From a virus: a stretch of 57,964 bases of DNA. The stretch is taken from IMG/VR virus record IMGVR_UViG_3300045988_085825; one strand, given 5' to 3'. The notes beneath the pieces were generated by a model. That model did no database searches. It was not told the origin of the DNA and saw only the letters and a list, made by a program, of their open reading frames with translations. Both the position numbers and the translations under genes were made by a program. Within the stretch, counting starts at the first letter, position 1. Each line of letters starts with the position of its first letter. This document shows positions 1,075-31,404 of the stretch, piece after piece.

Positions 1075-2142
1075 ATGAACATTAGAGACGCTTATAATTC
1101 AAAAGCGATTGCACTTGTGCAGACAGAAGTAGCAAGTAACAAAATTGCTTACCTTGGAGCTGGACTCTTTCCGGCTAAAAAGAAAATGGGTCTTGATCTG
1201 AAATGGATTAAGACATCCAAAGGACTTCCGGTTTCTTTAGCACCGTCCAATTTTGATGCGGTATCCACTCTGAGAAGCCGTGAGGGATTCAAACTGACAG
1301 AAACCGAAATGGCATTCTTCCGTGAGTCTATGCTTATTAAAGAAGCAGATGAACAGGAAATCATGCGTGTTAAAGACAGTACAGACCCGTATGCGGCAGA
1401 TGTTCTGAGCAGAATTTTCGATGATGCAAATACCCTGATCGACGGCGCGGATGTTGTGCCGGAAAGAATGATTATGCAGCTGCTTGCTCCAACTGATGGT
1501 TCACCGAAAATTTCTATTCAGGCAAACGGAGTAACATATGCTTACAACTATGACCCGAATAGCACATACAAGACAAAGAACTTTGCAAGCCTGACAACTG
1601 ACACTGACAAGTGGTCTGATACTACAAATTCTGACCCGATGGACGATGTGTCTGTTGCACTGGATGCTGTAGAAGCAGAAACTGGTGATAGACCGTCTAT
1701 TATGATCGTTTCCAGAAAGACCATGGACTATCTGAAACAGAATGCAAAGATCAAATCTGCAATTCTGGCTCAGAACGTTACTGCCAATGTATTCATGACG
1801 GACAATCGAGTAAAAGAGATCTTCTCTAGCGAACTTGGAATCAGTATCATCGTGTACTCAAAACAGTACAAGAAAGAGGATGGAACTGCAGCCAAATTCT
1901 ACCCGGATGGTTTTGCAACTCTTATTCCGTCCGGTGCACTTGGTAATACTTGGTACGGAACCACTCCGGAAGAGAGAACCCTTATGGGAAGCGGAGAGGC
2001 AGATGTATCCATTGTTAATACAGGTGTAGCTGTGGCAGTTACCGTCACAAACGACCCGGTACATACGAAGACTACTGTATCTGAGATCGTTCTTCCGTCC
2101 TACGAGAGAATGGACAGCACCTACGTTATCAAGTGTTACTAG
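1075..2142 (+). CDS. Major capsid protein (gpE-like family, from recall)
   Basis: 355 aa, with a strong RBS (GAGGAAATAATG), located after the scaffold and decoration genes. Confidence 0.8.
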   Translation: MNIRDAYNSKAIALVQTEVASNKIAYLGAGLFPAKKKMGLDLKWIKTSKGLPVSLAPSNFDAVSTLRSREGFKLTETEMAFFRESMLIKEADEQEIMRVKDSTDPYAADVLSRIFDDANTLIDGADVVPERMIMQLLAPTDGSPKISIQANGVTYAYNYDPNSTYKTKNFASLTTDTDKWSDTTNSDPMDDVSVALDAVEAETGDRPSIMIVSRKTMDYLKQNAKIKSAILAQNVTANVFMTDNRVKEIFSSELGISIIVYSKQYKKEDGTAAKFYPDGFATLIPSGALGNTWYGTTPEERTLMGSGEADVSIVNTGVAVAVTVTNDPVHTKTTVSEIVLPSYERMDSTYVIKCY

Positions 2143-2762: not shown

Positions 2763-2860
2763 CCTATCTGCCATGAGCAGAAAAGAAATCCGGTTTTTGT
2801 AATGCATTTACCGGTTTTGAAGATTGAGCGTTGCCGGAAGGTAGCAGGGGCGTGCTATAG

Positions 2861-3223
2861 GTGGTGGAGGGCAGCACGCAAAATTATAGTAGGAAGGCGG
2901 TATATGATGTGACGATACAGGTATCGGCAGCAATCATTATAAGCGTGTTATCACTGAGTTTTTCCGTCTTTATGGGTCTGAAAAGTGATAAGCGGACAGA
3001 CACAAAGGATATTGAGGAACGTGTAAAAGAAAATACACGCATTAACATGAAACTGGATGCAATATCGAATAACACAACTGAAATCAAAAACGAGGTTTTG
3101 GAAATGAGGAAAGAGATCAATTCCCATGATGGAAGAATCGTTAAGGTTGAGGAAAGTGTAAAGTCGGCGCATCACAGATTGGACGGCTTGGAAGAGCGTC
3201 TTAATGAGTATAAGGAGGTATAG
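2861..3223 (+). CDS. Membrane-anchored coiled-coil protein (possible lysis accessory)
   Basis: N-terminal TM helix AAIIISVLSLSFSVFMGL followed by a heptad-rich region. It lies immediately upstream of the holin-like gene. The GTG start is uncertain. Confidence 0.45.
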   Translation: MVEGSTQNYSRKAVYDVTIQVSAAIIISVLSLSFSVFMGLKSDKRTDTKDIEERVKENTRINMKLDAISNNTTEIKNEVLEMRKEINSHDGRIVKVEESVKSAHHRLDGLEERLNEYKEV

Positions 3224-3226
3224 ATT

Positions 3227-3496
3227 ATGGACATCACACAGATTGGAACATCTTTAGCAATCATCGTTATCTGCTATCTGATCGGATTGGGAGCTAAGAC
3301 TATTCCGAGCATTAAAGATAATCTTATTCCGGTTATCGTCGGAGTGTCCGGCGGAATCCTTGGTGCAATTGGAATGTATGTTATGCCGGAGTTTCCGGCA
3401 AGTGACATTATGACAGCAATTGCAGTTGGAATTGTGAGCGGTCTGGCCAGCACCGGAGTAAATCAGGTCTACAAACAGGTAAAGAAAGATGCTTGA
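3227..3496 (+). CDS. Holin-like protein
   Basis: 89 aa with three hydrophobic segments and a charged C-terminus (NQVYKQVKKDA). It resembles clostridial phage holins of the Hol44/Hol3626 type (recall). Confidence 0.6.
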   Translation: MDITQIGTSLAIIVICYLIGLGAKTIPSIKDNLIPVIVGVSGGILGAIGMYVMPEFPASDIMTAIAVGIVSGLASTGVNQVYKQVKKDA

Positions 3497-3914
3497 CATC
3501 AATAAGCAGTTGATGAAGTATTCGCAGCACGGTCAAAAAGTCACCATCTATGAGAAAGATGAGGATGGAAACATCAAATACTACGTGGATGGTGACGGTA
3601 ACAAAATCCCTTTGATTGCAGATGAAAAAGTTGGTTTTTCAGAACCAAAAGAGTTCTATGCCAATATCAGTAATAAGTTGAGTGAAGTTCTGGTAAAAGA
3701 GTTTGGAGTTGACGACAGTAGCACTTATGTACAGATCGTTACCGATAAAGGATACCTTCCTTTGAAAGCCGGTGATGTGGTATGGAAGAAGTCGGAAGTC
3801 GGTTATGATGATTCTGGACTCGTGGACAGCACAACAGCTGATTATGAGGTTAAGGGAGTTGCTGATGAGGGCCTGACTGTTGATCTGTTTTTGCTCCAGA
3901 AAGTTGTGAAGTGA
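3489..3914 (+). CDS. Structural protein of unknown role (head-tail joining region)
   Basis: 141-aa ORF overlapping its neighbours within the morphogenesis operon. Confidence 0.4.
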   Translation: MLDINKQLMKYSQHGQKVTIYEKDEDGNIKYYVDGDGNKIPLIADEKVGFSEPKEFYANISNKLSEVLVKEFGVDDSSTYVQIVTDKGYLPLKAGDVVWKKSEVGYDDSGLVDSTTADYEVKGVADEGLTVDLFLLQKVVK

Positions 3915-23019: not shown

Positions 23020-24895
23020 AATTGATTTTTCAGATATTACTAAAATTTCTGGAAGGAACGGAGCTGGAAAGTCCAGTATTGCAAGCGCATACACATGGGT
23101 GCTTTTTGACTGCGACTACAATTTGAAAAGCAGTCCGGCAGTCCGTAGGGAAGTTGACGGGGAACCGGTAATGGATTCTGATGTAGAAGTAACACTGGTT
23201 TTTGGTATGGATGGGAAAGAAATTTCCATGCGAAAGGTACAGCACCGGACGATCAGCAAGGACGGAGCATCTTACAAAGATGATAATAAATATTTTATCA
23301 ATGATGTTCCAAAGAAAAAAGCTGAATTTGAATCATATCTTGGAATTGATATGGGACTTTTGAAAAGCTGCTCGAATCCGGAAGCTTTTTTAGTAAAAAA
23401 AGCAGATGAAATGAGAGCATATTTGTTTTCTCTATCAAAAGAATTTTCGGATTTGTATGTTTGCCGGGAGAACGAAAGCCTACATGGACTGGCAGAAAAG
23501 CTGAAAGATTATTCAGTTGAGGAATTATCTGCCATGAATAAGAAAAAGAAATCGGATATTGAGAAAGAGCTTCCGGTTCTGGACGGACAGATTAAGGAAA
23601 AAGAACGAGACATCAAGTTGAAATCCGACATTGATGTATCTGATCTGGAATTGCAGAGAAATACATTGAAAGAACAGATTGCAGAGAATCTGAAAAAACA
23701 GGCTGATAGTCAAAACATTTTGAAAGATTATGAATCTGCGACTGCCGGAATTATGGAGCTGAAATTCAAACTGTCAGATATGCAGAATCAGGCGAATAAT
23801 GCTCTTTCTGAAAAAGTCAGGGAAATCAGGAGCGAGATTTCAGAAAAAGAAAGAGACAAGAGAAACATGGAAATCAAATCCGATGATTGCAGCAGAAATG
23901 TTAGGCTTTTGACGGCTTCCGTTAAAAAGCTGTCTGAGGAAAAACAAAATCTTGCAAATCTGTGGAAGCAAGAGAAAACCAGAGTTTTTGATGAAAGTAG
24001 CACCGTATGCGTGTACTGCGGGCAGGAATATCCAGAGGACAAGAAAGAACAGCTCCGGTCAGAGTTCGCTGTCAGAAAAGAAGCTGAGTTAAAGCGGATT
24101 ACTGATAAAGGAATGTCGCTGAAAAAGACGATTGAAGAAGATGAACAGGAAGTCGAGAAACTGAATGATTATTTGAAAGAGGCAACTGAAGATATAAGAA
24201 ATATTGAAGAAGAGATTCGGTTTCTCAGAGAAAAAGAAGCAAAAATTCCGGTTGCTGCGGATATTTCAGGTAATGAAGAATATAAGAAAATCCAGAACCA
24301 GATTACTGAAAAGGAAAAGTACCTGGAACAGTTTGGAAACGCTTCTGATCTGAAAGAACAGCTCAGACAAGAAGAATCGAATCTGAACGAGCAGCTGAGA
24401 ACCTGCGAACAGAAAATTGCACAGTCGGATACTTCAGCAGAAGAAGAACGACTGGAAGAACTGAAAGCAAGAAAGCTTGACTTGGGGCAGAAAAAGACGG
24501 ATGCAGAGCATATACTTGACCTTCTGGCAGAACTGGAAAAGAAGAAAAATGAGCTGCTTTCCGATGAAATCAACAGCCATTTTGGACTGGTTAAGTGGAA
24601 GTTGTTCGAGAATGCAAAGAACGGAAATTATAAATCTGCATGCATTCCACAGGTTGATGGAAAGTCCATTCTGACCACCATAAGCAATAAGGGAAACCGG
24701 ATTCTCGGAAAACTGGATATTTGCCGGAGCATCCAGAAAATCGAAGTAATTTCAGTGCCGATCTGGTTGGATGATTGTGAGTCGTTGGACTCTGAAAACC
24801 AGAAGAAGGTTATTGATATGGTGGACGGACAGCTGATTATGCTGATCGTAAATGATGGAAAAGAATTAAAAGTGGATGGGGAGCACTATGAATGA
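22967..24895 (+). CDS. SMC/Rad50/SbcC-like ATPase with central CxxC hook
   Basis: Walker A GRNGAGKSS, a long coiled coil, the mid-coil VCVYCGQEYPE, and the C-terminal IWLDDCESLD. Confidence 0.8.
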   Translation: MKLIKMVLRNFMAYLEAEIDFSDITKISGRNGAGKSSIASAYTWVLFDCDYNLKSSPAVRREVDGEPVMDSDVEVTLVFGMDGKEISMRKVQHRTISKDGASYKDDNKYFINDVPKKKAEFESYLGIDMGLLKSCSNPEAFLVKKADEMRAYLFSLSKEFSDLYVCRENESLHGLAEKLKDYSVEELSAMNKKKKSDIEKELPVLDGQIKEKERDIKLKSDIDVSDLELQRNTLKEQIAENLKKQADSQNILKDYESATAGIMELKFKLSDMQNQANNALSEKVREIRSEISEKERDKRNMEIKSDDCSRNVRLLTASVKKLSEEKQNLANLWKQEKTRVFDESSTVCVYCGQEYPEDKKEQLRSEFAVRKEAELKRITDKGMSLKKTIEEDEQEVEKLNDYLKEATEDIRNIEEEIRFLREKEAKIPVAADISGNEEYKKIQNQITEKEKYLEQFGNASDLKEQLRQEESNLNEQLRTCEQKIAQSDTSAEEERLEELKARKLDLGQKKTDAEHILDLLAELEKKKNELLSDEINSHFGLVKWKLFENAKNGNYKSACIPQVDGKSILTTISNKGNRILGKLDICRSIQKIEVISVPIWLDDCESLDSENQKKVIDMVDGQLIMLIVNDGKELKVDGEHYE

Positions 24896-25428
24896 CAGAT
24901 ATTTTGTAGAACGACAATTCAAGCATATGGGATATGAATGTGTTGTTACATTCGGAGTGTTAGGGCATAGATGCGGATATGTTGGTATTCCTAAAACGCA
25001 CTCTTTATATGGAAAAACATTGTTCTGATTACTTGGAAATCAAAAAGAAAGATTTAGTAGATAGAGAGATAAGCGGAATTTTTCCTTTACTGTGTGCTTG
25101 TTTCGATGAAGATGAAAGACTAAAAATTGAAGCATATTTCCAATGTCACGGCGGTATTACCTTTGCAGGCGGCGGTAAAAACTCAAGCTATCCGATTGAA
25201 AGTGATTTATGGTGGTTTGGCTTTGACTGTGGACATTGTGACGATGGGAAAGAATTGGAACTTGCCTATGAAAGATTTCCTAATTATAGAAAAAGTCTTT
25301 CTATGCAAATTGAGATTGAAAGTAAATTTCATATTGATGGTTTAATTGTTCGCACAGAAGAATATGTGGCAGAAGAGTGTAAGAAATTAGCGGAGCAGTT
25401 AAAAGCGTTTGAAGAAAGTGAGGAGTAA
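24888..25428 (+). pseudogene. Conserved phage gene split by a frame change at an A5 run
   Basis: A 46-codon ORF starts at ATG 24888, which overlaps the upstream stop by 8 nt. It ends at 25028, and the rest continues in the +1 frame from the A5 run at 25013..25017 (CHGGITFAGG...WWFGFDCGHCDDG). Confidence 0.55.
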
Positions 25429-25430
25429 AA

Positions 25431-26030
25431 ATGAGTAAAGCATTGGATATGGCAAGGAAACTGGTTAAGAAGCTGGAAGAAGAGGAAAAACAGTCGAAAG
25501 TGCAGCTTTCAACTTTGAATCCGGGAGATGTATTCAAAATTGGAGAGCATGATTTTATTGTACTGACGCAGTACAGAGAGGAAACGGCAGTAATTTCCAA
25601 AGGATTCATGGCTGAAAATGTGAAATTTGATGAGGATTCGAGAAACTATAAAGAGTCAAATCTGAAAAAGGTTATCGAAAATCTGATCCAGCCGGTTATT
25701 GAGAAGGAAGTCGGATCAAAAAACCTTATTGAGCATGAGGTTGATCTGACAAGTGTAGATATGCAGGACGAATTAGGAAGAGATAGATGCAAAGTCAGAC
25801 CTATAACATTTGATGAAGCACGACAGTATAACGATTTACTGGTTAATAAAAACCTTAATGATTGGTGGTGGACATGCACACCTTGGAGCACAGAAGACAG
25901 AGGATGGAAATATTCAATTGCCGTTGTTGCTCCGACCGGCATTATCTACGACAACGATTGCGATTTCAGCCGCGGTGTTCGCCCGTTTTGTATCTTAAAA
26001 TCTAATATCTTTGTATCGAAGGGAGAATGA
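25431..26030 (+). CDS. DGR target protein (DUF6273-like C-type-lectin-fold candidate, recall)
   Basis: 199 aa. The C-terminus WWWTCTPWS...VVAPTGIIYDNDCDFSRGVRPFCI carries the VR. Confidence 0.8.
   Translation: MSKALDMARKLVKKLEEEEKQSKVQLSTLNPGDVFKIGEHDFIVLTQYREETAVISKGFMAENVKFDEDSRNYKESNLKKVIENLIQPVIEKEVGSKNLIEHEVDLTSVDMQDELGRDRCKVRPITFDEARQYNDLLVNKNLNDWWWTCTPWSTEDRGWKYSIAVVAPTGIIYDNDCDFSRGVRPFCILKSNIFVSKGE
25918..25994 (+). repeat. DGR variable repeat (VR)
   Basis: 65/77 identity to 26534..26610. All mismatches but one correspond to adenines in the other copy. Confidence 0.85.
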
Positions 26031-26814
26031 AAATGGGATTAACAATGAAAGCATTGCAGGAACAGATTGATGTGTTAAAAAAGAAATGGAAGAGCTGAGA
26101 AGCGGCCAGAAAGTAGAATGCAACAAGAAATTTTCCAAATTTCTTACTATTGGTGAAACATTTGAACTGGCGGGAGTTAATTGGAAGATTATTGATATCA
26201 CAAGTGACGGTCATGTTTGCCTGTCTGATTCTATAGGTGAAATGAAATTCAGCTCTGAAAACAATGACTGGAGAACCAGCAATCTTCGGAAGTATTTGAA
26301 TGAAGAATTTTTGAAAAAGATTGAATCAGAAATCGGAGCAGGTAATCTGATAGGATTTGAAAGAAATCTTCTTTCTTTGGACGGCCAGACGGAGTACGGA
26401 ACCTGTGATGATAAAGTGTCACTTTTGACAGTGGATGAGTACCGGAAATACAGAAGGCTGATTCCAAATACAGGTGATTGGTTCTGGTTGATTTCTCCGT
26501 GGAGTACACCTTGCAATGATTTCAAAAACAGTGTTACCGTTGTTGCTCCGACCGGCAATATCAACAACAACAATTGCAATAACAGCAACGGTGTTCGCCC
26601 ATTCTGTATCAAACAGATAGTTAGAGTAGGCAGTAAGCCGAAATCAGAAAAAGATACAAAAAAGTGTATGACCTTCCCGAATAGGGTAAATACAAAGGAA
26701 TTTTTACAATGGATAAAGATGTTATATGCAGCTATGAAAATCTGTATAAGGCATACCGGAAGGCTAAAACTGGCAAAGGTTTTAATGGAAGCTGTGCAAA
26801 ATTTCAGACTATGA
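26027..26814 (+). CDS. Paralogue of the DGR target carrying the TR; needs a -1 shift at A AAA AAG
   Basis: The start (ATGA-coupled 26027, or ATG 26033 after GGGAG) opens a 21-23 codon frame. The heptamer AAAAAAG at 26077..26083 leads into the long ORF tracked from 26086. Confidence 0.55.
26534..26610 (+). repeat. DGR template repeat (TR)
   Basis: Adenine-rich, reading G N I N N N N C N N S N G in frame. It lies 98 nt upstream of the RT start. Confidence 0.85.
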
Positions 26815-27734
26815 ATCTGGAAGGACTTCACTTATTGAAAGAACAACTGGAAAATCAGACATACCGGTTGAATCCGTACAACGAATTTAAGGTTTACGAA
26901 CCGAAAGAAAGAGTGATTAAATCGTGTTCTTTCAAAGACAAAATAGTCCAGCATTGTTTATGTGATGAAATTCTGCATCCTGCATTAAAGGATCGTTTTA
27001 TCAGTACGAATTATGCCGGGCAGCAGGGGAAAGGTACTCATTTTGGAATGGATTGCTTGAAAGAGCAAATGATTGATTTTTATGAAGAACATAGACTTGA
27101 TGGCTGGATTCTTAAATGTGACATTAAAAAGTTTTTCTACCAGATAGACCATGAGATCCTAAAAAGAATTGTTGACTATCACTTTCCAGATGAGTACACC
27201 AAATGGTTGAATCACCTGTTTATTGACAGTACAGAAGGTTTGGGGCTTCCACTCGGGAATCAAGTAGCTCAGGTATATGCACTTCTGATGCTAGATGGTA
27301 TGGATCACTTCATTACCGAAACACTTGGAATTTCCAGATATGGAAGATACATGGATGATTTTTACCTGATTTATACAGATAAAGAGTATTTGAAGTTTTG
27401 CTTGGAGCAGATTCGAGATTTTCTTGGAAGTCTGGGACTTGAATTGAATGGAAAGACACAGATTGTCCCATTCAAATGCGGAATAGCATTTACAGGTTTT
27501 CATCACTACGTAACATTGGACGGAAAATACATAAGAAAATTGAGCGGCACAAACAAACGAAAGATGCGTAAGAAAATCAGGAAATGGTCAGAACTGATTA
27601 GGTCCGGGAAAATGACGGAAGAAAAATTTTTTGAGAAGTACAACGCTTGGAAAAACCATGCATTACATGGAAATTGCATTAAATTGTGCCACTCGATGGA
27701 TTTATATGTAAAAGAATTATTGGAGGAAAAGTAA
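26709..27734 (+). CDS. DGR reverse transcriptase
   Basis: 341 aa with a YMDD box (GRYMDDFYLI) and the DGR-type motif LPLGNQVAQVYALLML. Confidence 0.9.
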   Translation: MDKDVICSYENLYKAYRKAKTGKGFNGSCAKFQTMNLEGLHLLKEQLENQTYRLNPYNEFKVYEPKERVIKSCSFKDKIVQHCLCDEILHPALKDRFISTNYAGQQGKGTHFGMDCLKEQMIDFYEEHRLDGWILKCDIKKFFYQIDHEILKRIVDYHFPDEYTKWLNHLFIDSTEGLGLPLGNQVAQVYALLMLDGMDHFITETLGISRYGRYMDDFYLIYTDKEYLKFCLEQIRDFLGSLGLELNGKTQIVPFKCGIAFTGFHHYVTLDGKYIRKLSGTNKRKMRKKIRKWSELIRSGKMTEEKFFEKYNAWKNHALHGNCIKLCHSMDLYVKELLEEK

Positions 27735-27736
27735 TT

Positions 27737-28483
27737 ATGGCAGATACACAGGTAGCAGTAACAGAGGAAAAGAAAGAAGTATCAAGAAATAAAGTGACGG
27801 ATTACAGTCTTGGAATTTTTGGAACGTCAGATAACTTCATTATGGCTATGCAGATGGCAAAAGCATTGTCAAGTTCAACGATAGTGCCACAAACGTTCCA
27901 GAGAAACGAAGCGAATTGTCTGATTGCCATTGAGCAGGCGCAGAGATTACACGTAAGTCCACTTATGGTAATGCAGAATCTCAATGTGATTCAGGGAAGA
28001 CCGTCATGGAGTTCCAAGTTTTTGATTGCTGCGATCAATAACAGCGGAAAATTTGATACAGAATTACAGTTCGAGGAGAAGAAGGACAAGGATGGAAAGC
28101 CATTTTCTTGCACAGCATGGGTAATGAAGAATGGTAGAAAAGTTGAAGGAATGACGGTTGACATGGACATGGCGAGAGCAGAGGGATGGCTTAGCAAAAA
28201 CGGAAGCAAATGGAAAACCATGCCACAGCTGATGCTTCGTTACAGAGCGGCATCTTTTTTTTCCAGTCTTAATTGCCCGGAACTGACAATGGGTCTGTAC
28301 ACAAAAGAAGAGATTATTGACGGTGATTTCAAAGAATACAAGATTGAAGATGTACAGGAGCAGGCTCATGAAGAGATCGTTAAGAATGCAAATTCTATGG
28401 ATTTTGAACCGGAAGAAACTGCTGGAACAGTTACCGAACCGGACGGGCAGCAGGCAATGCCGGAGTTCATGCAGGAGGGATAA
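27737..28483 (+). CDS. recT: RecT-family single-strand annealing protein
   Basis: Start at ATG 27737 after GGAGG. The pattern ANCLIAIEQAQRLHVSPLMVMQNLNVIQGRPSWSSKF is typical of RecT. Confidence 0.85.
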   Translation: MADTQVAVTEEKKEVSRNKVTDYSLGIFGTSDNFIMAMQMAKALSSSTIVPQTFQRNEANCLIAIEQAQRLHVSPLMVMQNLNVIQGRPSWSSKFLIAAINNSGKFDTELQFEEKKDKDGKPFSCTAWVMKNGRKVEGMTVDMDMARAEGWLSKNGSKWKTMPQLMLRYRAASFFSSLNCPELTMGLYTKEEIIDGDFKEYKIEDVQEQAHEEIVKNANSMDFEPEETAGTVTEPDGQQAMPEFMQEG

Positions 28484-28484
28484 G

Positions 28485-28760
28485 ATGAGAGTAATTTCGC
28501 AGGATGGAACGATTGATGTTCCGTATGAAAATTTTGTATTTGGAATAACTTTAGATAATTATATATCGGCGGTTATAAATACAGCAGTAAGACCAACTGA
28601 AGTCGTGAATGGAATTATGGCTAAATATTCATCCAGAGAAAAAGCACTGAAATCCATGGAAATGCTGAGAAAAGCATGGTTAGGAGAAAGTGTAGAGTTT
28701 GAAAACGGATTTTACCATAAAAATTGCGTTTTCCGGTTTCCGGCAGACGATGAGGTGTAA
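28485..28760 (+). CDS. Hypothetical protein
   Basis: 91 aa, with an internal ATG after GGAGGGA. Confidence 0.5.
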   Translation: MRVISQDGTIDVPYENFVFGITLDNYISAVINTAVRPTEVVNGIMAKYSSREKALKSMEMLRKAWLGESVEFENGFYHKNCVFRFPADDEV

Positions 28761-28762
28761 GT

Positions 28763-28972
28763 ATGACTCTTAAAGAACGGGTGATCGTAGAAGCCTACAC
28801 AGGTTACTGTATGACAACAGGCGAGGAAAAAGAAGAACTCTATAAATACATAGCAAATACTATGGGCAGACCGATTTTTTCCCATGAACTTGCAGATGAA
28901 GAAATCATAAGCGAGTTGCATGATAAAGTTAAAACGGATTTTATCAGGCTTTGCAGAGGAGAGGATGTGTAG
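28763..28972 (+). CDS. Hypothetical protein
   Basis: 69 aa, GAGGTG RBS. Confidence 0.5.
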   Translation: MTLKERVIVEAYTGYCMTTGEEKEELYKYIANTMGRPIFSHELADEEIISELHDKVKTDFIRLCRGEDV

Positions 28973-28974
28973 GT

Positions 28975-29289
28975 ATGAGACAGAATCCATGCAGGTATTG
29001 CTCATCGTCAGTGGATATAAAAGGGAAGCATTTCGCAGGTTTTTCGGAAAAATGTTGTGAATGTGATTACAGGAAGCAACACATGGAATATCTGAAAAAG
29101 AATCGGAAATTTGAGGAAGGCGAACCAATAACAAGCCTTGAAGAATTGCTGAAACAGGAATGGGTTATGTGGTATCACAACACAAAGCATATTGAAGTGA
29201 TTAAGCATACTCAACTTTCAACCGTTTTGATATGGCTTGATAAGGGTGCTTTTCACAAGACTATCAGGAAGGAAAGCGAGGTGATGTAA
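28975..29289 (+). CDS. Cys-rich hypothetical protein
   Basis: Start at ATG 28975. Contains CRYC...CCECDY. Confidence 0.5.
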   Translation: MRQNPCRYCSSSVDIKGKHFAGFSEKCCECDYRKQHMEYLKKNRKFEEGEPITSLEELLKQEWVMWYHNTKHIEVIKHTQLSTVLIWLDKGAFHKTIRKESEVM

Positions 29290-30016
29290 TGCTCAAACTG
29301 TTATGTTGCGGAACCGGAAGTTCTGGAAATTCTTATGCGCTTAAAACAGGAACGGAAACACTTCTGCTTGATGCAGGAATGCCGATTAAGGATATTAAGA
29401 GAATGTGCGGATGGAATGTGAGGGACATTTCCGGCTGTGTTGTAACTCATGAGCATGGTTAGGAGACCATAGCAAATCGATGAAAGAATTAGAAGCAATG
29501 GGAATGCCTGTATTTGCTCCGTATAGAGATGATATCGGTGCGAAATTCAAAGGCAGATGGAAAATCAGAGCATTTAATTTGACCGATTTAAACGGCAAAT
29601 GGACTCATACAAACGGTGATGGATCTGAATGCCAGTGTTACGGCTTTTGGATTCAACACCCGGAGATGGGGACAATGATTTACGCAACTGACACAGAGTT
29701 GATTAAGTGGCGGTTCAAAAATGTCAATCACATTCTTCTAGGAGTAAATTATGACCCGGAAGTGGTGTCTGGTGATGACGCAAAGAAAAACCATGTTGTC
29801 CGTGGACACATGAGCATTGATACGGCTTGCGACTTTGTAAAAGCCAATGTGTCAGATCAGTTGCAGAACGTGATTATGTGTCATTTATCAAGTGAAAATG
29901 CCGACAAGGATAGTTTTATAGAGAAAATGAATAGAACCGTTCCAAACGTCAATGTGTGCGTTGCGGAGCCTGGCATGGAATTAAAATTAAGAAATCCGGG
30001 CGAATGCCCGTTTTGA
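29289..30016 (+). pseudogene. MBL-fold metallo-hydrolase split inside the HxHxDH motif
   Basis: The N-fragment ends ...VVTHEHG-TAG at 29462. The next frame continues GDHSKS... The 5 extra nt TAGGA lie at 29460..29464. Confidence 0.7.
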
Positions 30017-30023
30017 GGTGAAA

Positions 30024-30254
30024 ATGGCGAGAACAAAAGGATTAGGTGTAAACCCAATTACAAATACGATCTATTACGGAACGCAGGATACAGAAAAACA
30101 TATGTGGGTAGGAAATAAAACAGATGTCACAGACAGTGCTATTGCAGCTGTGTTTGAATGGCTTATTGGAAATTTTGATGATTCTATGGAAGAATTTACA
30201 ATTACATATCCAAATTCAGAATATGAAATGGTGATTAGAAGAAAGGTGGAATGA
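30024..30254 (+). CDS. Hypothetical protein
   Basis: ATG 30024 after GAGG. 76 aa. Confidence 0.5.
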   Translation: MARTKGLGVNPITNTIYYGTQDTEKHMWVGNKTDVTDSAIAAVFEWLIGNFDDSMEEFTITYPNSEYEMVIRRKVE

Positions 30255-30266
30255 CTTATCAATAAA

Positions 30267-30695
30267 GTGATTTTAACAGGTAGATTCGCGAAAGACCATG
30301 ACGTTAGATACTCAAACGGAGAGAAAACAACTGCTGTTGCGAGATTTACTCTGGCAGTAGACAGGAGATTCAAAGGTGATGGAAATCCGACAGCTGATTT
30401 TATCAACTGTGTAGCGTTCGGAAAATCCGGGGAGTTTATCGAAAAATATTTCCGTAAAGGTATGAAAGCTAATATTTGCGGACGGATTCAGACCGGTTCT
30501 TATACGAATAAGGACGGAAACAAGGTCTACACTACAGATGTTCTGGTGGAAGAGATTGAGTTTGGCGAAAGTAAGAACAGCAATCAGCAGAGCGCAGCTC
30601 CGGCTAATCCAAATAATGCAGTTAATCCAATGACTGATGAAAATGGTTTCATGAACATCCCAGATGGAATTGACGAAGAGTTACCGTTTGCTTGA
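30267..30695 (+). CDS. ssb: Single-stranded DNA-binding protein
   Basis: OB-fold pattern VILTGRFAKDHDVRYS...FINCVAFGK and an acidic tail (DEELPFA). GTG start. Confidence 0.85.
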   Translation: MILTGRFAKDHDVRYSNGEKTTAVARFTLAVDRRFKGDGNPTADFINCVAFGKSGEFIEKYFRKGMKANICGRIQTGSYTNKDGNKVYTTDVLVEEIEFGESKNSNQQSAAPANPNNAVNPMTDENGFMNIPDGIDEELPFA

Positions 30696-30711
30696 TAGAG
30701 AGGGTGAGAAA

Positions 30712-31404
30712 ATGAAAAAATTTGAACTCACAGCAGAATATGTGACTAATATTTTTGGAAAGAAATTATTTAGAATCAAGGCTCTTGTAGAATTTGGAAT
30801 TGTGAAAGAAGGAGAACTCGGAGGATTTGTAGAGAAAGAAAGTAACATTGATGATGACGGCAATGCATGGGTCTCAGGAAATGCACAAGTTTTCGGCAAT
30901 GCAAAGATCTCCGGCAATGCACAAGTCTATGGAAATGCAAAGGTTTTCGGGAATGCATGGGTCTACGGGAATGCATGGATCTCTGGAAATGCACAGGTCT
31001 ATGGAAATGCATGGATCTCTGGAAATGCACAGGTCTATGGAAATGCATATGTCGCTGGAAATGTACAGATATCCGAAAATGCACAGGTCTACGGAAATGC
31101 ATGGATCTCTGGAAATGCACAGGTCTACGGAAATGCATGCGTCGCCGAAAATCTGGATTATGCAATAGTAGGAGGGTTTGGCAGTGAGCAGCAGACAATT
31201 ACATTCTTCTGCCAGAAAGACGGATCTGTGGGAGCCAAATGCGGATTCTTTTACGGAACACTGGAAGAATTTCGAGAAAAAGTACTGGAAACTCATGGGG
31301 AAAGCAAATACGCGCGGGAATACCTGATGATTGCTGATCTGATAGAATTACATTTTGCAGGAGGCTGTGATGGCAATGATAAAGACAACCATTCATGTCT
31401 GTAA
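30712..31404 (+). CDS. Hexapeptide-repeat (beta-helix-like) protein
   Basis: About 16 consecutive GNAxVx/GNAxIS hexads. Start at ATG 30712. Confidence 0.6.
   Translation: MKKFELTAEYVTNIFGKKLFRIKALVEFGIVKEGELGGFVEKESNIDDDGNAWVSGNAQVFGNAKISGNAQVYGNAKVFGNAWVYGNAWISGNAQVYGNAWISGNAQVYGNAYVAGNVQISENAQVYGNAWISGNAQVYGNACVAENLDYAIVGGFGSEQQTITFFCQKDGSVGAKCGFFYGTLEEFREKVLETHGESKYAREYLMIADLIELHFAGGCDGNDKDNHSCL
30859..31152 (+). repeat. Tandem 18/36-bp coding repeats
   Basis: The unit GGAAATGCACAGGTCTATGGAAATGCATGGATCTCT is repeated with variants. All six frames are open here. Confidence 0.8.

Follow-up and report, generated by a model that had tools for sequence, protein, structure and literature searches.

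Diversity-generating retroelements (DGRs) of architecture B1 (Wu et al. 2018) are organised as avd, template repeat (TR) and reverse transcriptase (RT), and the TR is not translated there (PMC5758913). In the DGR of Bordetella phage, the Avd protein and the 20 nt of RNA directly 5' of the TR were both demonstrated to be required for synthesis of complementary DNA (cDNA) (10.1101/2023.10.23.563531). Those 20 nt pair with the spacer and form a duplex termed 'cPRT Stop' (bioRxiv 10.1101/2023.10.23.563531), and nonsense mutations in avd bring retrohoming to background (PMC12875486). DUF6273 has been described as a C-type-lectin-like target domain of DGRs (PMC10743442, PMC11792537), and paired targets are known in gut Clostridia phages, namely the Faecalibacterium prophages Lelie and CP11 (PMC11792537) as well as nd4 and nd12 (PMC10743442). 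Here we analysed the DGR of a viral DNA of 57,964 nt (IMG/VR record IMGVR_UViG_3300045988_085825); this whole stretch is called the window, and all features in it are given on the plus strand. A preliminary description, made from the sequence alone, had reported that its TR lies inside a full-length paralogue of the target gene that is readable only through a -1 shift at A AAA AAG, and had considered programmed frameshifting, a decayed duplicate or a homopolymer miscall as explanations. Comparison with related loci makes it very probable that the locus is a recently decayed DGR, in which a deletion between the variable repeat of the second target gene (VR2) and the TR was followed by a homopolymer frameshift.

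The cassette in the window and in its relatives

By its RT, its TR and variable repeat (VR), and its targets, the window locus is a genuine DGR. The first target gene (T1, 25431..26030), found in nearly all relatives, is intact and encodes 199 aa that match DUF6273 (C-type-lectin-like) in Pfam. It carries VR1 (25918..25994), the sole variable repeat remaining in the window, which aligns to the TR (26534..26610; 77 nt, adenine-rich, all adenines kept); within 26536..26601, 11 of the 11 mismatches between VR1 and TR fall on TR adenines. The TR is followed by a 98-nt spacer (26611..26708) and by the DGR RT (26709..27734), an intact protein of 341 aa with a Pfam RVT_1 match (E = 2e-17) and YMDD at 27348, 99% identical to that of the closest relative, L001 (related loci are referred to by L numbers).

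The second target gene, T2, is in two pieces. Its 5' end in the original frame (26027..26098) starts at an ATG at 26027 that overlaps the T1 stop (ATGA), translates as MKMGLTMKALQEQIDVLKKKWKS and ends at a premature stop at 26096..26098. This frame contains a run of six adenines followed by G (A6-G; AAAAAAG, 26077..26083), which is read TTA AAA AAG in the zero frame (26075..26083) and is formally a slippery heptamer, A AAA AAG. The T2 body (26083..26535) lies in the -1 frame and extends to the recombination junction; it matches DUF6273 in Pfam (E = 1e-9) and is about 88-93% identical in amino acids to the T2 of close relatives. In the same -1 frame, a long open reading frame (ORF) of 242 aa (26086..26814) continues across TR and spacer into the RT gene, whose start at 26709 it overlaps, so that the TR is now an in-frame fusion with T2. 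The shifted product, which reads ..VLKK-EMEELRSGQ.., is 36% identical to T1 over 183 aa (E = 8e-28), and both match Pfam DUF6273. In these respects the preliminary description was accurate: the ATG overlap at 26027, the stop at 26096..26098, the heptamer register and the long -1 ORF to 26814 all lie where it had placed them, and the shifted product is collinear with the target N-terminus, matching both T1 and the T2 of relatives.

Relatives were gathered with the RT protein, which retrieved 80 IMG/VR loci at 70-99% identity, and with the long ORF, which added 20 more, and cassette layouts were derived by mapping the component proteins onto every retrieved locus. All evidence on the window and its relatives comes from assembled contigs. 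About 70 contigs share the layout SMC-like gene, (optional small gene X), T1, T2, Avd, TR, RT and RecT, and this intact family fits architecture B1. T1 and T2 are here paralogous DUF6273 targets, each ending in its own variable repeat. In L001, T2 is continuous (2811..3431, 206 aa, DUF6273, with its own VR) and is followed by avd, TR and RT; the ORF at 3432..3803 (123 aa) matches Pfam bAvd and 23S_rRNA_IVP. The relatives' T2 start reads MKMGLTMKALQEQIDVLKKEMEEL continuously. Measured from the A-run, the repeats of intact cassettes lie at offsets of -140 (VR1), +477 (VR2) and +984/985 (TR). VR1 and VR2 vary among the distinct sequences of relatives and the TR stays adenine-rich, as would be expected of an active two-target DGR. 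The TR of intact relatives is non-coding and lies between avd and RT. The geometry and the paralogy that the preliminary description had given for a TR inside a full-length target paralogue hold in the window; the meaning that it implied does not, this arrangement not being native to the element.

Related phages are common in the habitat of the window, and the nearest cellular RT relatives were found in metagenome-assembled genomes (MAGs) of Clostridia, Oscillospiraceae, Acutalibacteraceae and Ruminococcus. The RT scan of a genome collection returned MAG relatives of only 53-59% identity, which are informative for host range and covariation, not for the lesions. A blastn search of a phage record collection gave a single weak unannotated match (72% identity over 21% of the query).

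The VR2-TR deletion and the shortened A-run

The deletion was mapped by global alignment of window 25431..26830 with L001 2215..4125. The two sequences are collinear and more than 95% identical save for two differences, a 507-nt gap and one missing base in the A-run. The gap, L001 3321..3827, takes in the VR2 variable part, the T2 3' end, avd in full and the RNA segment preceding the TR. Repeat offsets agree with this alignment: in the window the repeats lie at -140 and +476, so that the TR occupies the VR2 offset, and likewise in L101, L102 and L109. The exchange was placed by comparison of flanks, including those of L116, an intact cassette whose TR is identical to that of the window. The crossover interval between VR2 and TR is 26536..~26557, in the shared 5' block ACCGTTGTTGCTCCG(A)CCGGC; the exact identity block of VR2 and TR is about 15-22 nt, and the window carries the deletion junction k-mer TTCAAAAACAGTGTTACCGTTGTTGCTCCGACCGGCAATATCAAC. 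By this comparison, the window cassette is the ancestral cassette minus 507 nt, with the T2 body fused in frame to the TR. The Avd-less, RT-bearing layout was found only in the window and its own lineage (L101, L102 and L109); on these sequences the fusion is private to one lineage and is not the native state of the element. Further repeat copies and an Avd homologue were sought across the whole 58-kb window and none was found, the best Avd tblastn match having E = 0.87. A crossover mediated by cDNA had been considered for an exchange at the extreme 5' edge of homology; it was set aside, as several relatives natively carry GTTACC in T2 and ordinary exchange suffices. Text searches of the literature returned no description of a natural VR-TR deletion, which is no proof that none exists, and on VR-TR recombination they returned nothing but statements that homologous recombination between VR and TR does not account for retrohoming.

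In a test across 99 distinct related loci, anchored on the RT start, 67 had the frame in TR register open; it ran from a stop just 5' of the TR as far as +100/+103, within the RT gene. The open frame through TR and spacer is, by this comparison, ancestral. A VR necessarily has the same codon register as its TR, and with the frame across TR and spacer open in the family, the fused ORF extends automatically to 26814. This frame (RT start -173 to +103 in L001-L080 and similar loci) has no preceding start codon in intact cassettes and closes before the RT start in the MAG relatives of 53-59% identity; it may reflect chance, composition (43% A) or descent of TR and spacer from a target 3' end.

The A-run was surveyed by an exact-pattern scan that admitted A6 or A7, A8 being outside the pattern; it yielded 18 metagenome and 12 viral loci, which are 29 different loci (19 distinct sequences). 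In every one of these 29 other loci that contain the A-run context, the tract is A7 and T2 is one continuous ORF, and the 12 of 12 close relatives that were aligned read TTAAAAAAAG (A7), with ..VLKKEMEEL.. in one frame. A6 is limited to the window, L101 and L102. The last two were retrieved by an exact look-up of the 242-aa ORF, from the ENA assemblies ERZ27333685 (L101, contig k113_64704, 30 kb) and ERZ1755170 (L102, NODE_17072). Both share A6, junction, VR1 and TR with the window; L101 shows 100% identity to it across 23111..31012, with divergence confined to the edges. Over 2252 nt (25148..27398), L109 (OHUN01008701.1) does not differ from the window other than in the A-run, which is A7; the deletion is present in it, and its T2::TR ORF of 263 aa is uninterrupted. 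Since L109 has the deletion together with A7, the comparison indicates that the deletion came first and the change from A7 to A6 second. It also indicates that A6 is a real mutation, namely the A7 tract minus one A. The last 129 nt of L109, past window position 27398 in the middle of the RT gene, match nothing that was compared, and may represent a chimeric end or an RT-truncating rearrangement.

These comparisons show the following course of events. The ancestor had the order T1, T2, avd, TR and RT, as kept in about 70 related gut-phage contigs. Direct-repeat recombination between VR2 and TR within the shared 5' block then deleted 507 nt, thereby fusing the T2 body in frame to the TR and removing the T2 3' end together with avd and the RNA segment that had preceded the TR. 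Later, within the deletion lineage, the A7 near the start of T2 lost one A, which truncated the frame after 23 codons. As a probable consequence, TR cDNA would no longer be made, VR1 would be frozen, and the T2::TR pseudogene would decay. The decayed duplicate considered in the preliminary description comes closest to this course of events but lacks its decisive step, which shows only in comparison with relatives: T2 is a genuine DGR target in its own right, the second of the cassette, and the 507-nt deletion that took avd joined it to the TR.

Functional state of the cassette and alternative explanations

In L116 and other intact relatives, AGGTTATGCGC, about 8 nt 5' of the TR, forms a duplex with the spacer segment GTGCATGACCT, which follows the TR by about 52 nt. 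Covariation was assessed on 73 distinct sequences; 26 of them come from Clostridia MAGs whose RTs are 53-59% identical. The 12-bp upstream:spacer helix and an adjacent 3-bp hairpin (columns 33-44 with 205-216, and 218-220 with 237-239, of alignment A3) were 98% paired across the 73 sequences, whereas pairing fell to 31-52% when the partner was slid. Double-change cells numbered 177, against about 50 in shuffles, and compensatory changes were present in 9 of the 12 pairs of the long helix. In position, this duplex is equivalent to the cPRT Stop of the Bordetella phage, and the comparison adds covariation support for a cPRT-Stop-like duplex in a large DGR family of gut Clostridia phages.

In the window, the spacer keeps the 3' arm of the duplex (GTGTATGACCT, 26664..26674), now orphaned, and a small hairpin (26674..26686); the 5' arm was lost with the deleted segment. 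Pairing of the spacer with the T2-derived sequence that now lies 5' of the TR is no better than in shuffled sequences (p about 0.21). avd is absent at the locus and anywhere in the window, and is present in about 70 RT-bearing relatives. With neither Avd nor the 5' arm of the duplex, cis-primed reverse transcription would be lost. Judged from the sequence and from the Bordetella analogy, the cassette is thus probably inactive, its RT no longer making TR cDNA and its VR1 frozen. The T2::TR fusion would then be free to decay, and the later frameshift is consistent with an inactive cassette. The RT being still intact, the loss would be recent.

Several points weigh against this interpretation. 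About one quarter of known DGRs lack avd (PMC5758913), and Avd loss is therefore not universally lethal. The RT is intact, and the deletion lineage is without internal divergence. VR1 is identical in the four contigs of the deletion lineage, the flanks of which are also essentially identical; this stasis is weak evidence, given that some intact-cassette strains also recur with identical VRs, and VR1 identity was for that reason downgraded as a proof of inactivity. L109 may be chimeric beyond window position 27398. The inactivity is something that we infer, and A6 is documented at the level of assemblies.

One alternative explanation is that the collapsed cassette is still an active DGR, either Avd-free or supplied with Avd in trans from a co-resident relative, with the TR lying within messenger RNA (mRNA). 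RT, TR, spacer, VR1 and the ends of the type associated with initiation of mutagenic homing (IMH) are intact, Avd-less DGR lineages exist (PMC5758913), and related phages share the habitat. However, Avd is kept in about 70 RT-bearing relatives, and the duplex 5' arm, a cis-acting element that cannot come in trans, has been deleted; its counterpart is indispensable to the DGR of Bordetella phage (10.1101/2023.10.23.563531). Moreover, VR1 is invariant in the four contigs. We consider continued activity very unlikely.

Alternatively, the A tract may be a reversible ON/OFF switch of T2, through phase variation or transcriptional slippage, with A6 as the OFF state. Such a switch is suggested by the A6/A7 polymorphism on an otherwise identical 2.2-kb background and by the location of the tract close to the 5' gene end, which recalls contingency loci. 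Yet the other 29 loci (19 distinct sequences) all have A7 and no broken frame (A8 being outside the search pattern), and recurrent switching of the tract was not seen: a single A7-to-A6 event is observed, on one background, and A6 appears only after the deletion had already wrecked the gene. An A7 tract is, in addition, short for efficient slippage. A switch is very unlikely on these grounds.

An artefact would involve a miscalled A6, as the preliminary description had considered, or an assembler that collapsed VR2 onto the TR, or both. Homopolymers and near-repeats are classic sources of error, and L109 differs only in the length of the A-run. However, two further ENA assemblies show both A6 and the identical junction; their MEGAHIT-style and SPAdes-style contig names suggest different assemblers, and this reproduction in independent assemblies makes a miscall unlikely. 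The VR2/TR identity block of about 15-22 nt is below the k-mer sizes implied by the contig names, and all three repeats were assembled correctly in more than 20 other contigs. Furthermore, no other widely contradicted coding frameshift indel was found in the flanks of about 14 kb (window 17.3-31.7 kb). Taken together, an artefact appears highly improbable.

The preliminary description favoured programmed -1 ribosomal frameshifting at A AAA AAG, which would set ribosome entry into the TR-bearing gene and thus gate the TR donor. In its favour, the heptamer is of the canonical X XXY YYZ type in exact zero-frame register, and the product made after the shift would be collinear with T1 and the relatives' T2. 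Nevertheless, the two-frame arrangement and the heptamer, the conservation of which in related phages the preliminary description had proposed to check, are absent among relatives: the contigs of the 29 loci and of the isogenic L109 have A7 and a single ORF. An A7 that yields one continuous ORF, which the preliminary description had named as refuting its reading if seen in reads, is thus the state of the relatives' contigs. No stimulatory element was detected in the window: folds 3' of the heptamer (26084..26143 and 26084..26183, that is, within 60-100 nt downstream) were no better than shuffled sequences (z = -0.09 and +0.36), and the 20 nt 5' of the heptamer contain no Shine-Dalgarno-like (GGAGG-like) motif. 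A 101-nt fold that includes the heptamer (z = -2.8) was rejected as a stimulator, since it encloses the slip site and the same sequence is present in A7 relatives. Because the flanks are unchanged in the A7 relatives, nothing in them evolved to stimulate slippage. The gene itself is a deletion product with a 67-aa tail from the non-coding spacer.

That the -1 product matches the ancestral protein is explained by the loss of one A from TTA AAA AAA GAA, and the slippery-heptamer appearance is, by this comparison, a by-product of the A7 tract losing one base. Unselected low-level slippage on A AAA AAG, or transcriptional slippage on A6, is possible. It would at most restore the ancestral reading, that is, a fusion protein with an invariant Asn-rich 'VR' and the 67-aa tail. 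Frameshifting as a programmed device is hardly credible, and the comparison largely refutes it.

A further possibility is a live cassette in which the RT copies the TR within mRNA while premature termination at A6, with rare -1 or transcriptional slippage, shields the template from ribosomes and lets a little T2::TR protein through. If true, this would be a naturally occurring DGR that works without Avd and in which translation gates the use of the template, but we regard it as scarcely tenable.

The recently decayed DGR proposed above carries two cautions for the reading of single loci. A canonical heptamer that bridges collinear frames in perfect register can arise from an A7 that loses one base, and a 'TR inside a coding paralogue' can arise through VR-TR recombination. 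Its value is otherwise modest, as a dated two-step collapse of a multi-target DGR cassette.

Neighbouring genes, other decay routes and known systems

Directly 3' of the RT lies a gene for a RecT-family recombinase (27737..28483; Pfam RecT, E = 1e-5), the product of which is a possible agent of repeat recombination at the locus. The RT stop differs slightly between the window (GAG GAA AAG TAA, ..EEK*) and L001 (GAG GAA TAA, ..EE*) at 27720..27740, and a 1-nt length difference at the RT-RecT junction in 21 relatives likewise represents minor C-terminal or intergenic variation. Just upstream of T1, an extra A (A5 at 25013..25017) breaks gene X (24876..25428), of unassigned function, into the two frames 24876..25028 and 24979..25428. 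L083, L087, L008 and L062 have A4 or CAA at this site and a single frame; L101 has the same A5. With it, the lineage has two homopolymer frameshifts in a stretch of 1.1 kb. Farther downstream, window 30858..31137 holds an 18/36-nt tandem array (15.6 copies of 18 nt) within an ORF faintly labelled as a beta-solenoid (YdcK-like); 21 of the 37 differences between the window and L101 fall in 31013..31076, within this array, suggesting repeat shuffling.

Other decayed cassettes were observed in the closest clade, in two classes. In the first, T1 and T2 are followed by a C-terminal RT remnant of 39-44 aa and then by RecT (L081, L082, L083, L086 and L093; also L108, L114, L125 and L128, of which L108 and L114 are separate records). 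In the second, T1 and T2 are followed by the first 21 avd codons, about 0.5 kb of other sequence and RecT, with no RT (L084, L085, L087, L092, L113, L119, L123, L124 and L130). Loss of the diversifying machinery with retention of both targets seems common in the clade. The gene X lesion and the cassette deletions of sister contigs are consistent with decay at the window locus.

Two further cassettes deserve mention. In L103, an otherwise intact cassette, the TR position (~1592..1663) holds an exact 72-nt copy of VR2 (~1084..1155) between normal TR flanks, with only 5 adenines in its variable part; the TR was apparently overwritten by the VR, a further hint of VR/TR exchange in these cassettes, or the assembly is mis-joined. 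In L002, L090 and L121, which are one contig, T2 residues 1-179 and 189-206 lie in different frames and VR2 is unrecognisable. T2 is thus broken within its VR (L121 ~3626..3712) in an otherwise intact cassette, either because VR heterogeneity broke the assembly or through a real lesion.

With regard to known systems, A AAA AAG is the site of dnaX-type -1 programmed frameshifting. The window has the identical heptamer in the correct register and, unlike the dnaX-type site, has no stimulatory elements and no conservation, its heptamer having arisen by loss of one A from A7. In its DGR components, the window resembles B1 and Bordetella phage BPP-1: an RVT_1 RT with YMDD, a TR directly 5' of the RT with a spacer of about 100 nt, adenine-only TR/VR mismatches, and a VR at the C-terminus of a lectin-like target. 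Its relatives also share with BPP-1 the avd directly 5' of the TR and an upstream:spacer duplex like cPRT Stop. Unlike B1, the window has neither avd nor the upstream RNA arm, and a target body has become joined to its TR; it superficially mimics the avd-less architecture A, although it is derived from B1 by deletion. As in Lelie, CP11, nd4 and nd12, to which it is likened by description, the family has two DUF6273 targets per cassette with C-terminal VRs and is of human-gut origin, whereas its targets, again by description, differ in being small (about 200 aa) tandem paralogues. Finally, the degenerate DGR of Thiohalocapsa PB-PSB1 has likewise kept some parts and lost key machinery (10.1101/2023.09.22.558884). 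The decay of PB-PSB1 has been attributed largely to transposons (10.1101/2023.09.22.558884), whereas that of the window proceeded by a repeat-mediated VR-TR deletion and then a homopolymer frameshift.

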